Below, one piece after another: positions 6,504 through 55,337 of a stretch of 64,000 nt of DNA. Location: NCBI RefSeq assembly GCF_035999195.1, contig NZ_DASYGY010000004.1, forward strand, positions 58,827-122,826. Reading direction: 5' to 3'. The notes below the pieces were generated by a model. That model did no database searches. It was not told the DNA's origin and saw only the letters and a list, made by a program, of their open reading frames with translations. The stretch is from Pseudoxanthomonas sp. GTDB lineage: Bacteria; Pseudomonadota; Gammaproteobacteria; Xanthomonadales; Xanthomonadaceae. Each line of letters begins with the position of its first letter. Position 1 is the stretch's first letter. The position numbers and the translations under genes were made by a program.

Positions 6504-7343
6504 ATGGCCCAAGAGCTCCGGCATCTGATCAGCGACGCGCCCCGCGTGATGGTGGTGGACGGGTCCAAGCTGGTGCGCAAGCTGATCGCCGATGTGCTGC
6601 AGCGCGATCTGCCCGGCGTGCAGGTGATCGGCTGCGCCAGCATCGCCGAAGCGCGCGAGGCGCTGGCGGCCGGCGAGGTGCATCTGGTCACCACCGCGCT
6701 GGCACTGCCCGACGGCGACGGCATGGAGATCGCGCGCAGCGTGCGCGAGGCGGCGGGCCAGGCCTACGTACCGGTCATCGTGGTGTCCGGCGACGCGCAA
6801 CAGCACCTGGAAGAGCGCCGCTTCACCGAATACGTCACCGACTATTTCGACAAGGCGCTGGGCCACGAGGCCCTGGCGACCTTCATCCGCGGCTACGTGC
6901 AGCCCGAGCCGGTGACCGGCGCCACCATCCTCTATATCGAGGACAGCCGCGTCGTGGCCGAAACCACCAAGCGCATGCTGGAGCGGCAGTCGCTCAACGT
7001 GGTGCACGTGCTGCGCGCGGAGGATGCGTTCGCGCTGCTCACCGCCGAATCGCTGGGCCTGTCCACGCACAAGTTCGACCTGGTGCTGACGGACGTGATC
7101 CTGAAGGGCGAACTGAGCGGGCGCGACATCGTGCAGCGCATCCGGGTGGATTTCGCCTACGGCAAGCGACGCCTGCCGATCCTGGTGATGACCGGCGACA
7201 GCAACCGCGACAACCAGGCCGAACTGCTGCAGGCCGGCGCCAACGACCTGGTGCTCAAGCCGATCGCCGAGCGGCTGCTGGTGACCAAGGTGCTGTTCCA
7301 GCTGCGCTTGGCGCGCATGGACGAATCGCGCAGCCTGGTCTGA
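6504..7343 (+). CDS. Tandem receiver (REC-REC) response regulator without output domain
   Basis: Two CheY-like units (VMVVDGS...; ILYIEDS...DLVLTDV...KP). Confidence 0.85.
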
Positions 7344-51428: not shown

Positions 51429-51441
51429 TGCTTCTTGCTGA

Positions 51442-51508
51442 TGTGGGAGCGACGTAAGTCGCGATGAGGCTTTACCGGTACCCGTTCGCGACTTACGTCG
51501 CTCCCACA
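51442..51508. repeat. REP doublet (family A)
   Basis: tgtgggagcgacgtaagtcgcga ... tcgcgacttacgtcgctcccaca; spacer similar to the 8111 copy. Confidence 0.9.
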
Positions 51509-51525
51509 CAAGCAATGGCAGCTTT

Positions 51526-51557
51526 AAAAAAAAGGGGCGAGCCGAAGCTCACCCCTT
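51526..51557 (-). terminator. Intrinsic terminator of rtcB, overlapping its stop codon
   Basis: aaggggtgagc-ttcg-gctcgcccctt then a T tract on the minus strand. Confidence 0.8.
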
Positions 51558-52772
51558 GATGCACACCACCTGGCGCAGCGTGTGGACGATCTCCACCAGG
51601 TCGGACTGCGCGGCCATGACCGCGTCGATGTCCTTGTAGGCGGCCGGCGACTCGTCGATCACGCCGGCATCCTTGCGGCATTCGACGTGCGCCGTGGCCT
51701 CGCGGTGCTGCGACAGCGTGATCTGCTGGCGCGCGGCGGTACGGCTCATCACGCGGCCTGCCCCGTGGCTGCAGCTGTGGAAGCTGTCCGCGTTGCCCTT
51801 GCCGCGCACGATGAAGCTCTTCGCGCCCATGCTGCCGGGGATGATCCCCAGTTCGCCTGCGCGCGCGCTCACCGCGCCCTTGCGCGTCACCAGCAGGTCC
51901 ACGCCGCCGTGCGTTTCCTTCTGCACGTAGTTGTGGTGGCAGTTCACCGCCATCTTCTCCAGCTGGAACTTCGGCAGGCGGTGGCGCATCTCCGCCAGTA
52001 CGCGCGACATCATCGCTTCGCGGTTCTCGCGGGCGTAGTCCTGAGCCCACGACACCGCTTCCACGTAGTCGTCGAACAGGGGCTCGCCTTCCATGAAGAA
52101 GGCCAGGTCCTTGTCCGGCAGGTGGAAGCCCAGCACACGGTGCGCCAGTTGCTCGCGCGCCCGCTCGATGAAGTAGTTGCCGATCAGGTTGCCGGTGCCG
52201 CGCGACCCGCTGTGCAGCATCACCCACACGGCATCGCTTTCGTCGAGGCAGAGCTCGATGAAGTGGTTGCCGCCGCCCAGTGTGCCGATCTGGCGATCCA
52301 GCTTGTCGGTACGGATCCTGCGGTGCTTCTCCTTGATCACGTCGAGTCGCTCGGCCAGCCCCGACTGCGCGATGCGCGTGCCGATGCTGTCCGGCAGCTT
52401 CCAGTGCTCGCCGCCACGGCCGTTGCCGACCGGCACGCTGCGCTCGATGCCCGAGCGCAGTTGCGCCAGGCTGTCGGGCAGGTCCTTCGCGCGCAGCGTG
52501 GTGCGCACCGCGGCCATGCCGCAGCCGATGTCCACGCCGACCGCCGCCGGGATGATCGCGCCGCGGGTCGGGATGACCGAACCCACCGTCGCACCCTTGC
52601 CCAGGTGCACGTCGGGCATCACCGCGACCCACGGCCCGACGAACGGGATGGAGGCGATGTTTTGCAGCTGCTCGTGGGCCTGCTGTTCCAGCGGCACGCC
52701 GCGCACCCAGCCCTTGATCGGCGTGGTGCTGCCCTCGGCGTGCAGCAGTTCGAATCGGGATTGCATGTTCAT
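51549..52772 (-). CDS. rtcB: RNA 2',3'-cyclic/3'-phosphate-5'-OH ligase RtcB
   Basis: MPDVHLGKG, AVGVDIGCG, GTLGGGNHFIE, MLHSGSRG, HHNY, GSMG, CSHGAGR, DESPAAYK. Confidence 0.96.
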   Translation of the reverse strand: MNMQSRFELLHAEGSTTPIKGWVRGVPLEQQAHEQLQNIASIPFVGPWVAVMPDVHLGKGATVGSVIPTRGAIIPAAVGVDIGCGMAAVRTTLRAKDLPDSLAQLRSGIERSVPVGNGRGGEHWKLPDSIGTRIAQSGLAERLDVIKEKHRRIRTDKLDRQIGTLGGGNHFIELCLDESDAVWVMLHSGSRGTGNLIGNYFIERAREQLAHRVLGFHLPDKDLAFFMEGEPLFDDYVEAVSWAQDYARENREAMMSRVLAEMRHRLPKFQLEKMAVNCHHNYVQKETHGGVDLLVTRKGAVSARAGELGIIPGSMGAKSFIVRGKGNADSFHSCSHGAGRVMSRTAARQQITLSQHREATAHVECRKDAGVIDESPAAYKDIDAVMAAQSDLVEIVHTLRQVVCIKG

Positions 52773-52971: not shown

Positions 52972-54090
52972 CTACTTCAACGTCACCAGCTGCTTCAGCA
53001 CGCCATCCAGGCCGCCGAACACGGTGAGCTTGTCGATCTTCTCGGTGACCTTCTCCAGGGCCTCGAGCTCCTTCAGGCGCATCAGCACCGGCGACTCGTC
53101 GATCAGCTTCGCGGTGTTGAGCAGGGAACGCGTGGCGTTCGCCTCCTCGCGGCGGCGGATCACGTTGGCTTGCGCCGTCTTCTCCGCCTGCACCACCCCG
53201 TTGAGGATCTCCTTCATCTCGCCCGGCAGGATCACGTCCTTCACGCCCACGCCCAGCACCTCGACGCCGAAGCCGGTCAACTGGCCGCGCACGTAGGCGA
53301 AGATGTCGGCGTCCAGCGAGGCCTTGTCGCCCAGCAGTTCGTCCAGCGTCCTGGCCGCGACCGCCTTGCGCAGGCCGTACTGCAGCTCGCGGTAGACGAA
53401 GTCGCCGACCTTCGCGACCTTGGTGCGCGCGGCCACCACGTCGGTGACGCGTGTGCTGGCGGCCAGGTTCACGCGCAGGCTGACCTTGTCGCGGGTCAGC
53501 AGCTCCTGGCCCGACACTTCGATCGTCTGCACGCGCAGGTCGACGATGTCCACGACCACGTTCTTCTGGAAATTCCAGAAGGCGTAGGAACCCGCGGACA
53601 ACGTGCGCTCGAGCTTGCCGTCGATGAACACCAGGCCGGCGAACTCCGCCGGCACATCGGCCACCACGGCCAGCTTCGACAACGTGCCCAACTGGCGCAG
53701 GCGACGCGCGACGGCACCCTCGACGTCCAGCGAGGCCAGCGTCACCGCCTGCACCTCGACCTTCACCAGGCCGATCCAGTACAGGCGCCGCGTGCCGGGC
53801 GGCAGCACGTCTTCCAGCTTGCCGTTCTTCAGCACCAGGCCGACCTTGTCCACGCCGATGTCGGCATGCACGAAGACCTCGCCCAGGCGTTCGCCCAGGC
53901 CCGCGATCAGCGCGTCGACGTCATGGCCGGAATACTCCGGCGATGCGATGTTGAAGGTGCGCACCTCGGTCCGACCCATCGGGTCGAACCAGCGGTACAC
54001 GCCGGGTGCGAGCACGCGCTCGAACCGAAGGTTGCGATACACCAGGCCGCGCTCGCCGTCACCGATCACGACCCTCTTGGTCCAGAACAT
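52972..54090 (-). CDS. SPFH/band-7 domain protein (slipin family), no TM segment
   Basis: ERGLV repeats; VDLRVQTIEVSGQELLTRDKVSLRVNL, VKDVILPGEMK, AQANVIRRREE, LKELEALE; AAGGAG RBS. Confidence 0.88.
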   Translation of the reverse strand: MFWTKRVVIGDGERGLVYRNLRFERVLAPGVYRWFDPMGRTEVRTFNIASPEYSGHDVDALIAGLGERLGEVFVHADIGVDKVGLVLKNGKLEDVLPPGTRRLYWIGLVKVEVQAVTLASLDVEGAVARRLRQLGTLSKLAVVADVPAEFAGLVFIDGKLERTLSAGSYAFWNFQKNVVVDIVDLRVQTIEVSGQELLTRDKVSLRVNLAASTRVTDVVAARTKVAKVGDFVYRELQYGLRKAVAARTLDELLGDKASLDADIFAYVRGQLTGFGVEVLGVGVKDVILPGEMKEILNGVVQAEKTAQANVIRRREEANATRSLLNTAKLIDESPVLMRLKELEALEKVTEKIDKLTVFGGLDGVLKQLVTLK

Positions 54091-54457
54091 GGCGTTGTTC
54101 TCCTTGTTGGCTCTGGTGGTTCGATCCGGATCCAACGGATCGCCGCGGTGGATCGAGTCCCGCGACGAACGGTGCCCATCGCGATGCGCGATCGGCGGAA
54201 GAAGGTGGAAACGCCCCTGGACGAGGGCGGTGCGGGCGACCGGCGCTGTCGGCGGACGCATCGCAGCGAGGGCGCAGTCCATGGACTGCGTCGAACGCTG
54301 CGCGCGTCCGCGTCGAGGGCGCGGTGCCGGCACCATCCCCGCTGCGATGCATCGTCTTCCTGCATTCCTTCGCGGAAAGGCGTTGCGCCGCACGGGGCGT
54401 TTCCTGGGGGGACTTTCGTCCCGGTGTCATGACGTGACAGGTCATGTGCCCTTGCAG

Positions 54458-54531
54458 GCGTTGGAGCGGGAATCGAACCCGCGACAGTCGGATTAACCGT
54501 CCGATGCTCTAACCATCTGAGCTATCCAGTG
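54458..54531 (-). tRNA. Aberrant tRNA-like element, Asn-type GTT anticodon (G33, broken acceptor stem, no encoded CCA)
   Basis: TA-GCTC-AGATGGTTA-GAGC-A-TCGGA-CGGTTAA-TCCGA-CTGTC-GCGGG-TTCGATT-CCCGC; acceptor pairs 5 of 7. Confidence 0.7.
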
Positions 54532-54601
54532 GTGGACGAACCGGATTCGAACCGGTGGCCAACGGCATGCGCCGCTGCTCTCCCACGCTGAGCTATCGTC
54601 C
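54530..54601 (-). tRNA. Aberrant tRNA-like element with 4-nt anticodon loop (GCAT), 6-bp acceptor stem and encoded CCA
   Basis: GGACGA-TA-GCTC-AGCGTGGGA-GAGC-A-GCGGC-GCAT-GCCGT-TGGCC-ACCGG-TTCGAAT-CCGGT-TCGTCC-ACCA. Confidence 0.7.
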
Positions 54602-54944
54602 GCTCGAGGAACACCGTCTCCCACGCTTCGGCATACGCCACGGCAGCGCCGCGCGCACCGGACGGGATACAAACCCGTGCCGCTGTCGCGTGTTCGATCG
54701 ATGCTCCGCATTGCCGGCGGTCGCCCACCGGCAATCCGTTCGGGCGCCATGCGCCCTTGTCGGCGTTCTCTCCACGTGCAGCCCGCATCGGGGCATCACG
54801 ACGCAGCGCACATGCGCCAGTCGCAGCCGCGCCCCTGCATCGGGGCGCGCACGCGCGCTACCCGGATGCCCCAGGGCGGAAAAGGATTTCCGTGGTGGAA
54901 AGAGACGAACCTGTTCGATGCATGCGCATCCTCCGCGAACGCTG

Positions 54945-55018
54945 AAAACAAAACGCCCCCGGGACTTGCGACCCGAGGGCGTTCGCGTTCCTCGGGAGAT
55001 CGGGGTGGCCGATCTCCC
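54945..55018 (-). terminator. Attenuator: protector hairpin / antiterminator / intrinsic terminator
   Basis: GGGAGATCGG-ccacc-CCGATCTCCC (55018-54994); CCCGAGG..CCTCGGG (54996-54972); AACGCCCTCGGG-tcgcaagt-CCCGGGGGCGTT-ttgtttt (54983-54945). Confidence 0.75.
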
Positions 55019-55035
55019 AGGGAGTCAGCCGGATG

Positions 55036-55158
55036 TCAGAAGTCCAGGTGCCGTGCGCGTTCGGTACCGCGCAGGTCGCTGCCGTTCGCACGCAGCGCCA
55101 GGCCGCAGCGTGATGGCTGCAGGGCGGGCTTGCTGTCGAAGGAATAGGCGGGCTTCAT
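55036..55158 (-). CDS. Putative 40-aa leader peptide MKPAYSFDSKPALQPSRCGLALRANGSDLRGTERARHLDF
   Basis: ATG about 43 nt after the predicted TSS; stop 17 nt before the attenuator; no Shine-Dalgarno. Confidence 0.5.
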   Translation of the reverse strand: MKPAYSFDSKPALQPSRCGLALRANGSDLRGTERARHLDF

Positions 55159-55200
55159 GGGAAGAATTCGATTGCTGAAAAAACGGCCATGTGGCCGACG

Positions 55201-55258
55201 GGCGCGGACGATACGCCGCTTGTTTGCGGAGCGCAACACTTTTTTGATCTTATTTTCG
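55201..55258 (-). promoter_or_regulatory. Sigma70 promoter with UP element and GC-rich discriminator
   Basis: TTGCGC (55236-55231)-N17-TATCGT (55213-55208); upstream aaaataagatcaaaaaa; downstream ccgcgcc. Confidence 0.65.
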
Positions 55259-55337
55259 ATGGCCGACCGATGGCGTCGGAAAGAAGCACCAGCGGCTGCC
55301 GCTAGAATGACGCACCCCGTCCTTCGCGCCTCGCACC

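Follow-up and report, generated by a model that had tools for sequence, protein, structure and literature searches.

What sets transcription of an RNA-repair operon in Pseudoxanthomonas sp., where genes for a Band-7/SPFH protein and an RtcB RNA ligase lie behind a structured RNA leader, is the question raised by this locus. The window, i.e., the whole stretch of 64,000 nucleotides (nt) that was analysed, carries both the leader and the operon on its minus strand, and all coordinates below are window positions unless a relative's locus is named. The leader is probably a ribosome-mediated transcription attenuator heading the operon, which comprises a tRNA-like RNA, the Band-7/SPFH gene and the RtcB ligase gene. 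At the level of sequence, this reading is carried by a conserved geometry of the leader open reading frame (ORF), four helices, covariation, and a predicted fold switch in most relatives.

Leader reading frame and alternative helices

The initial annotation had described a 40-codon ORF, a 17-nt gap and a 10-bp hairpin (hairpin 1, 55018-54994), followed by a 12-bp terminator with a U tract (54983-54945) and an alternative 7-bp pairing between the two structures, and all of these parts were recovered at the same coordinates on the minus strand (Table 1). Hairpin 1 has ten perfect pairs around a CCACC loop; such a hairpin occurs once in the 64-kb window, compared to 0.02 expected. The terminator, which was also found independently by a terminator scan, consists of 12 G+C-rich pairs including one G.U and is followed by a T tract, with a free energy of -24.9 kcal/mol for the window sequence. 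The alternative pairing joins CCCGAGG (54996-54990) in segment 3 to CCTCGGG (54978-54972) in the 5' arm of the terminator. Relative to dinucleotide shuffles, a 101-nt stretch folds at z = -5.1 and the 266-nt leader at z = -3.6.

The SPFH protein of the window is closest to the Pseudoxanthomonas mexicana group with 92-95% identity, and its relatives at 74-85% identity are spread across the Lysobacterales, in Xanthomonas, Lysobacter, Luteimonas, Thermomonas, Dyella, and Rhodanobacter. When the 1.25-kb intergenic region was searched by BLAST, conservation was confined to two islands, the tRNA-like region and a block of 83 nt, which starts exactly at hairpin 1, ends just past the T tract and shows 80-90% identity. 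The block was found in 77 of 80 SPFH-RtcB loci of the order. For the three loci without it, the contig breaks off within 720 nt upstream of the SPFH gene, hence the block is present in 77 out of 77 loci with enough sequence, always immediately upstream of one and the same operon. Conservation of leader length and stems in relatives, which the initial annotation had suggested as a check, is seen both for the block and for the ORF, the latter in 78 of 78 loci. A pattern scan added Stenotrophomonas maltophilia, other Stenotrophomonas, Arenimonas, Frateuria, Chiayiivirga, Dokdonella, and Solilutibacter. The hairpin pattern also matched a Nocardiopsis contig (L164). Two further matches were set aside: the one in Pseudoduganella (L096) is a hairpin that arose by chance where a kinase gene ends, and a "Chitinophaga" contig from a metagenome-assembled genome (L101) carries a full leader of the Lysobacterales type and is probably mis-binned.

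Some genomes hold a second, degenerate copy of the two-hairpin block. In Luteimonas endophytica a copy without U tract lies on a second contig (L116:~3225-3310) right after the stop codon of an unrelated gene, and in an RNA or DNA contig of "organism A" (run X10 contig 15) the block is joined to shortened downstream pieces.

An ATG-initiated ORF of 30-50 codons that stops 5-25 nt before the block occurs in every one of the 78 loci. Mononucleotide shuffles of the upstream sequence yield such an ORF in a mean of 3.1 and a maximum of 9 loci, shifted anchors in 0-6 loci, and the reverse strand in 5. The ORFs of the related loci span 33-48 codons and stop 10-19 nt before the block. Their GC fractions of 0.66, 0.53, and 0.80 at codon positions 1, 2, and 3, respectively, are coding-like. 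The peptides align poorly, and substitutions between close relatives are nearly even over the three codon positions (316, 363, and 397). The repeated KPA to which the initial annotation had pointed is true of the window peptide, but it lacks both conservation and any apparent meaning. At the second codon, 49 out of 78 loci have AAG, AAA, or AAC. The absence of a Shine-Dalgarno (SD) sequence, also described in the initial annotation, was confirmed for the window, and an SD-like core is present in only 4 of the 78 loci; A+T makes up 49% of the 25 nt that precede the ATG versus 35% of the ORF. These features are consistent with SD-independent initiation. Since the peptide drifts and ORF length, stop position, second codon, and SD-less approach are kept, selection appears to act on translation to a fixed end point and not on the product. 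We infer from this pattern that the leader ORF is translated. Regulatory codons, including codons of tRNAs cut by anticodon nucleases, were considered and dropped, as peptide composition is unremarkable but for a mild, ~2-fold excess of His, and none are conserved.

Hairpin 1 and the terminator together have 97.7% of cells paired in an alignment of 74 sequences, a value that no shuffle reaches, and slid registers give 34-61%. Counted separately, the helix of hairpin 1 is paired in 96.9% and the terminator helix in 98.4% of cells. Five compensatory pairs were found, from A-U to G-C in hairpin 1 and from C-G to U-A and G-C to A-U in the terminator, and the G.U intermediates of hairpin 1 work on this strand only. 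The loop of hairpin 1 is variable (CCACC, TCGCC, TGACC, CACC). As MAFFT alignments put the gaps of segment 1 and a one-base indel of segment 3 in the wrong place, the pairs of the 3:4 and 1:2 helices were counted on re-cut sequences or directly by script. The 3:4 helix is exactly 7 bp long. At its outer pair, 31 of 60 distinct sequences carry C-G and the other 29 carry U-A, with zero mismatches (CG 21 and UA 20 of 41 by the tool count), and an eighth position is paired in just 2 of the 60. On a neighbour-joining tree of the SPFH proteins, the C-G and U-A states of this outer pair switch at least seven times. The same base of segment 4 has 8 mismatches in 60 with its terminator partner, and 73 of 74 sequences retain the U.G wobble of the terminator, since its U has an A as partner in the 3:4 antiterminator. 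Strict covariation in 3:4 and a retained wobble are together the signature of a base selected for two partners.

Of the attenuator class assigned in the initial annotation, the ORF, the intrinsic terminator, and the 7-bp antiterminator are strongly supported by comparison across loci, but the wiring of 1:2, 2:3, and 3:4 pairs fails as it was stated, because the 5' arm of hairpin 1, which serves as its region 1, is 17 nt past the stop codon and beyond the reach of a translating ribosome. What ties the helices to the ribosome is another segment further upstream, overlooked at the first reading. This segment contains or adjoins the stop codon, has the 5' arm of hairpin 1 as its pairing partner, and is numbered segment 1 here. 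Relatives share the conserved motif CGAC-TGA-TCTCC, with the leader stop codon as its TGA, and CUGAUCUCC, which holds the stop codon in most of them, is a near copy of the 3' arm of hairpin 1 and can pair with GGAGAUCGG. When 35 distinct sequences were picked by geometry alone (stop 10-18 nt before GGAG), 91.7% of cells were paired between segment 2 and the 9 nt that start one base before the stop (C-UGA-UCUCC), and 35-56% in slid registers. The 1:2 duplex is better than shuffles at p <= 0.05 in 34 of 67 loci.

Folding of the relatives gives the same partners. With the 3' arm of hairpin 1 withheld, the minimum free energy (MFE) structure pairs segment 2 with the segment 1 motif in nearly every locus, and for nascent RNA up to segment 4 it combines 1:2 and 3:4 in 39 of the 68 distinct sequences folded. 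If the stop codon and 10 more nt are masked, which mimics a terminating ribosome, hairpin 1 results in 68 out of 68 sequences. Typical energies are those of locus L040, in which the 1:2, 3:4, 2:3, and 4:5 helices have -13.6, -12.9, -17.7, and -25.6 kcal/mol, respectively. For leaders of this type the modelled ON fold is favoured until segment 5 emerges, after which the predicted terminator fold is favoured but needs two strand exchanges. A segment 0 inside the ORF, as in trp-like super-attenuation, was also considered; folding of the 5' untranslated region together with the ORF and segment 1 gave no consistent partner.

The mechanism proposed from these features would start with a leader RNA of five interacting segments made from a sigma-70-type promoter, segment 1 containing or abutting the leader stop. 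The pairs 1:2, 2:3 (hairpin 1), 3:4 (the CCCGAGG:CCUCGGG antiterminator), and 4:5 (the intrinsic terminator) would exclude one another. In the OFF state, the lead ribosome would keep in step with the polymerase and hide segment 1 while standing on the stop codon; 2:3 and 4:5 would form, and transcription would end at the U tract. A ribosome that is late or absent, owing to slow decoding, damaged tRNA or rRNA, or translation inhibitors, would trigger the ON state, in which segment 1 would take segment 2, segment 3 would pair with segment 4, the terminator would come too late, and the operon would be transcribed. We infer both the regulated termination and its inducing signal. The readout would be the general pace of translation, which would suit the cargo of an RNA-repair ligase and the induction of RtcB by translation stress in other bacteria.

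An extension of this mechanism, which we regard as possible rather than probable, is a self-referential damage sensor: lesions that RtcB can repair, i.e., cleaved tRNAs or rRNA, would slow the leader ribosome and thereby license transcription of the ligase, the tRNA-like cofactor RNA and the Band-7 gene. If so, the Lysobacterales, including Stenotrophomonas maltophilia and Xanthomonas, would have an RtcR-independent feedback between translation quality and RNA repair.

The promoter consensus over ~70 aligned loci is AAAAAgTGyTTGCr-N17-TAnnGT-GCGCGSCC, and the transcription start is predicted at ~55201. The 5' stem-loop with its U6 run is terminator-like and lies only ~5-25 nt past the predicted start. 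Most loci have a stem here, and many have the U run too; together they may act as a 5' stabiliser and an A/U-rich ribosome landing site. An A/U-rich linker without SD sequence joins the stem-loop to the leader ATG. Directly past the U tract, GCGTTCGC is perfectly complementary to GCGAACGC of segment 4 (54979-54986). Both are highly conserved and form an extended helix in the MFE fold. GCGTTCGC is transcribed only once termination is decided; its role could lie in locking the fold of the read-through RNA, in processing, or in a DNA site. Upstream, ~45 nt before the -35 box, a motif resembling ACCGTTCGTCGG (55259-55273, minus strand) is kept in many loci. It stands between the leader promoter and the divergent gene for an RsmC-like methyltransferase and could be a regulator site or part of a divergent promoter.

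Table 1. Features of the attenuator and of the operon behind it, with window positions
Feature	Position	Strand	Sequence, composition or evidence
Sigma-70-type promoter	55208..55246	minus	A tract 55246-55241; -35 TTGCGC 55236-55231; 17-nt spacer; -10 TATCGT 55213-55208; GC-rich discriminator; conserved motif in alignment of ~70 loci
5' stem-loop	55178..55197	minus	CGGCC-ACAT-GGCCG, then U6; terminator-like scan match and alignment
Leader ORF, 40 codons	55158-55036	minus	ATG 55158-55156; TGA 55038-55036; peptide MKPAYSFDSKPALQ...HLDF
Segment 1, degenerate tandem copies	55039-55031, 55028-55021	minus	CTGACATCC (holds the stop codon), CTGACTCC
Segment 2, 5' arm of hairpin 1	55018-55009	minus	GGGAGATCGG
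Segment 3, 3' arm of hairpin 1	55003-54994	minus	CCGATCTCCC; overlaps antiterminator strand CCCGAGG 54996-54990
Segment 4	54986-54979, 54983-54972	minus	GCGAACGC and terminator 5' arm AACGCCCTCGGG
Segment 5	54963-54952, 54953-54945	minus	Terminator 3' arm CCCGGGGGCGTT and U tract
Conserved octamer past the U tract	54935..54942	minus	GCGTTCGC; kept in nearly all loci
Structured non-coding RNA	54386..54760	minus	Conserved block, covarying stem
tRNA-like modules in tandem	54602-54532, 54531-54457	minus	4-nt anticodon loop; anticodon GTT, respectively; ARAGORN, Rfam tRNA
Band-7/SPFH gene, 372 aa	52972..54090	minus	Pfam Band_7, E = 1.3e-29; good ribosome-binding site AAGGAG
RtcB RNA ligase gene	51549..52772	minus	Pfam RtcB, E = 8.5e-125; PDB RtcB homologues

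Transcripts, points against, and rival explanations

Raw stranded reads were available for three runs from a Xanthomonas close to X. vasicola, with growth conditions unrecorded, and were followed on the homologous locus L134 of X. vasicola NCPPB 2417. Depth on the operon strand climbs over 6794-6830, a stretch that includes the -10 box (6796-6801) and the start predicted 7 nt further on (~6808), the rise being placed 0-30 nt past that box, and it plateaus across the leader ORF. In two of the three runs depth drops 3-4 fold within 6945-6956, a stretch that covers the two final sense codons of the leader ORF together with its stop codon (6952-6954), and the third run has no drop. Further downstream, depth holds level at 12-18 across the two hairpins and the U tract (~7036) as far as ~7085, and the ratio of downstream to leader depth is 0.2-0.3 in the two runs and ~0.85 in the third. 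Transcription of the leader thus begins at the predicted promoter, and some of the RNA reads through. In an organism similar to that of the window, a 610-nt RNA contig (run X14) covers 55217-54605 and crosses the terminator. Because RNA data at the level of contigs cannot reveal local drops in depth, they were used for continuity and abundance only. Of the raw reads labelled as the species of the S. maltophilia runs (X41, X43, X46, X47), zero mapped.

In the two runs with a drop, ~60-70% of leader RNA molecules end at the leader stop of L134, ~80 nt before the U tract. These 3' ends could stem from A-site cleavage at a paused terminating ribosome or from RNase E cleavage in segment 1, and they are, next to the ORF geometry, an indirect sign of leader translation. 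Were the damage sensor true, they would mark ribosome pausing, with A-site cleavage, as part of the mechanism. About 200 nt after the leader terminator of this locus (L134:~7100-7240) comes the 3' end of the SPFH gene, followed by an intact-looking start of RtcB.

Several points weigh against a ribosome-mediated attenuator. The stranded reads have no discrete 3' end at the U tract of L134, and their drop lies ~80 nt upstream; the short, very stable 3' piece of the terminated RNA may have been lost from the libraries, or the leader may be cut at the stop codon. The L134 locus itself is without the tRNA-like RNA and most of the SPFH gene. Translation of the leader is predicted in the face of a missing SD sequence in 74 of 78 loci, and the leader peptides have no conserved run of regulatory codons in their alignment. 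The S. maltophilia leader (T2-6, L083:2611-2712) has TTG in place of ATG (33 codons), and the alternative in-frame ATG gives only 17 codons; in Stenotrophomonas, segment 1 and the terminator are also seen to be more diverged. The modelled terminator state is by far the stablest at equilibrium in all loci, so that the model would rest on kinetics. The remaining points concern the clade of the window, in which 1:2 is reduced to 8 bp, interrupted by a bulge and closed by a 3-nt loop (-6.7 kcal/mol, from the hairpin-proximal copy of segment 1), and is no better than shuffles (p ~0.27). The MFE structure of the nascent RNA in this clade is hairpin 1 with and without the ribosome mask, and the ON fold at -19.6 is ~3.5 kcal/mol less stable than the extended hairpin 1.

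This Pseudoxanthomonas clade is the weak case of the family. Its leader stop lies 11 nt further upstream, and its segment 1 region resembles a tandem duplication, CTGACATCCGG followed by CTGACTCCCTGG. Hairpin 1 has -17.7 kcal/mol and reaches -23.1 when extended, via pairing of CUCC in the proximal copy with GAGG. The label "textbook" given in the initial annotation suits the family but fits the window sequence less well, with its degenerate segment 1. The proximal copy would nonetheless have its first bases under a ribosome that terminates at the leader stop. From a degenerate segment 1 and an extended hairpin 1, a bias towards termination and a weak or purely kinetic switch are predicted; the window element may, with some uncertainty, be a termination-biased variant rather than a dead one. 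A stronger version of this weakness, in which the element of this clade is a constitutive partial terminator or insulator, a decayed attenuator locked OFF here and functional elsewhere, is judged very unlikely. In its favour, hairpin 1 is the predicted fold of the clade in either state, and segment 1 lacks significance. Nevertheless, the ORF stays at 36-42 codons with its stop at -17/-18 although the peptide has been wholly replaced (MKPAYSFDS... vs MKPNFVNAI...), which speaks for continued selection on the ribosome stop, and the 7-bp antiterminator is intact.

Two other explanations bear on the whole family. A trans-acting factor could set the switch, with the ORF as a by-product or only a ribosome loader; candidates are a protein (RtcB or Band-7 in autoregulation, or some other protein that binds RNA), a fragment of damaged tRNA, or the tRNA-like RNA of the operon itself acting on hairpin 1 or its loop. 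For such a factor speak the sequence of hairpin 1, kept far beyond the need for pairing with GGAGATCGG nearly invariant, the retention of the element in the window clade despite its degenerate segment 1, and the precedent of RtcR in E. coli and Salmonella, which senses tRNA fragments (PMC7790460). It is nonetheless an unlikely account, as it predicts neither the length and stop position that the ORF keeps in all 78 loci nor a base-paired stop codon, and strong conservation is explained by two partners per segment, whereas the loop of hairpin 1 varies. There is also no match to a known family, T-box included, in Rfam 15 at E <= 1 within 54935-55260, nor a leader match in eight related loci at the gathering thresholds. 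Quite improbable, too, is an independent small gene, in which a ~255-nt mRNA for a small protein or a small RNA (sRNA) ends at its own terminator, the operon is transcribed from another promoter, and the pairings are incidental. Its leader fragment would account for the 3-4 fold excess over downstream RNA in two Xanthomonas runs, and the tRNA-like RNA of the S. maltophilia-like organism, up to ~1000-fold deeper than the leader region, has a level that is not simply set by leader transcription. However, the peptide is not conserved, the stretch between the terminator and the tRNA-like modules shows covarying RNA structure and no visible conserved promoter, and read-through RNA crosses the terminator of an element that always adjoins the same operon. 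The C-G/U-A covariation in 3:4 and the U.G wobble would make sense only under selected antitermination, as in the ribosome-mediated attenuator favoured here. Control by RtcR and sigma-54 was considered and rejected, since no RtcR gene is adjacent, the divergent neighbour being the gene for the RsmC-like methyltransferase, and no sigma-54 site (TGGCAC-N5-TTGC-like) was found within 54090-55330.

The operon and its tRNA-like RNA

The leader is followed by ~850 nt of non-coding sequence with two tRNA-like modules, the Band-7/SPFH gene, and the RtcB gene, in this order. The modules match the Rfam tRNA model with 45-49 bits and are defective in anticodon or acceptor features; the one with anticodon GTT has mismatches in its acceptor stem. 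They are probably the RNA named b7a-tRNA, from "band-7-associated tRNA", as RtcB, a Band-7/SPFH protein and a tRNA-like RNA lie side by side as in the RtcB - Band-7 - b7a-tRNA module. The b7a-tRNA is a prediction of Burroughs and Aravind (2016), who are cited for this neighbourhood in a later paper according to which the RNA lacks validation (bioRxiv 10.1101/312249). The likely start of RtcB is MNMQSRFELL, and the gene has its own terminator at 51557-51532. Against the NCBIfam models for E. coli-type and for PrfH-coupled RtcB, the protein stays below cut-off, with 140 bits vs 272 for TIGR03073.

In RNA-seq contigs of an S. maltophilia-like organism, a homologous stretch of ~470 nt (L083:2965-3440) has a word depth of 2e4 in one run and of 1.1e6 in another. 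Its flanks have depths of 100-640, up to ~1000-fold lower, and two sister runs are without elevation. The tRNA-like stretch is a very abundant, condition-dependent RNA. A relation to YrlA was dismissed, since the only match is weak (29 bits vs a cut-off of 69) and reflects the juxtaposed T and D arms of the tRNA-like modules. A promoter just upstream of the tRNA-like RNA was likewise considered, as the S. maltophilia palindrome ACATTATCGC..GCGATAATGT resembled an operator over a -10 box; the palindrome aligns with the covarying stem ATTGCCGG..CCGGCAAT of other genera, which makes RNA structure likelier.

Right behind the terminator, at 54858-54934 on the minus strand, a strong SD sequence (GGAGGA, 54934-54929) and an ATG at 54923 open a 21-codon ORF, MHRTGSSLSTTEILFRPGASG. 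An SD sequence and ATG occur at this place in 33 of 78 distinct loci, where the ORFs are mostly 11-22 codons long, and the stop lies in or adjoins a conserved CCCTGrrGCATCCGG...CCGAGGCAGGGG helix. This post-terminator ORF could be a second ribosome-dependent step. In X. prunicola, a copy of the sRNA sX9 (RF02228, 77 bits; L068:3315-3390) stands between the attenuator and the tRNA-like modules. Just past the RtcB terminator, 51435-51515 is a near-perfect inverted repeat of ~80 nt with arms of ~29 bp, which draws spurious matches to Rfam microRNA precursors and may be a repetitive extragenic palindromic (REP)-like or miniature inverted-repeat transposable element (MITE)-like element.

Comparison with known systems

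A literature search returned no paper describing an rtcB leader in Lysobacterales. As a new case within the class of ribosome-mediated attenuators the element is well supported, and its wiring is previously undescribed for the Xanthomonas/Lysobacter order. It offers a concrete and easily testable answer to how RtcB is controlled in bacteria without RtcR, in an order with the important opportunistic pathogen Stenotrophomonas maltophilia and the Xanthomonas species that are major plant pathogens. It would also place the transcription origin of b7a-tRNA, for which the transcriptomes give evidence that a large RNA with those modules can be extremely abundant. As a case of kinetic RNA switching it would be a clean one, with five segments, a base-paired stop codon in the sensor, and a response to the general pace of translation instead of to one amino acid, and the weak natural variant of the window clade serves as a comparison.

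In E. coli and Salmonella, rtcBA is under RtcR/sigma-54 control and responds to translation or tRNA damage (PMC7790460, PMC9650030). RtcR acts by CARF-domain enhancer-binding activation, a mechanism different from that of the Lysobacterales leader. The rsr-yrlBA-rtcBA operon with its Y RNAs is a related repair neighbourhood, although its YrlA matches the window only weakly. The cargo of the operon studied here equals the RtcB - Band-7 - b7a-tRNA neighbourhood, and that neighbourhood, as cited, has been described for the genes it carries rather than for their regulation.

Closest in architecture is PA5471.1-armZ, the precedent cited in the initial annotation, and rightly so, as ArmZ is an RtcB-like protein under control of the PA5471.1 leader; its expression rises with impaired ribosomes, and ribosome-dependent attenuation has been proposed (PMC12057347). 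Both systems have a short leader ORF and one or more terminators before a gene of the RtcB family. The PA5471.1 leader is much shorter and has armZ-prfH downstream, in contrast to the tRNA-like RNA, Band-7, and RtcB of the Lysobacterales, with no prfH downstream in the window. The PA5471.1 leader has 13 codons. Unlike in PA5471.1, the stop codon of the Lysobacterales leader sits in the sensing helix; the comparison of the two leaders covers their architecture.

The trpL, hisL, pheL, thrL, and ilvL leaders combine a translated leader peptide, mutually exclusive helices, and an intrinsic terminator, with the position of the ribosome setting the fold. Compared to these trp- and his-type attenuators, the Lysobacterales leader has no run of regulatory codons and five segments instead of four. 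As segment 1 has no upstream partner, an untranslated leader is predicted to read through, unlike in trp-type super-attenuation. By Term-seq, Dar et al. in 2016 reportedly found antibiotic-responsive attenuators with upstream ORFs before resistance genes, e.g., in the vmlR, lmo0919, and msrD leaders. Like these, the leader proposed here would sense ribosome stalling in general, with escape from an intrinsic terminator as the readout. The vmlR, lmo0919, and msrD leaders belong to other taxa and serve other targets, whereas here an RNA-repair module is headed by a family of leaders that spans an order.

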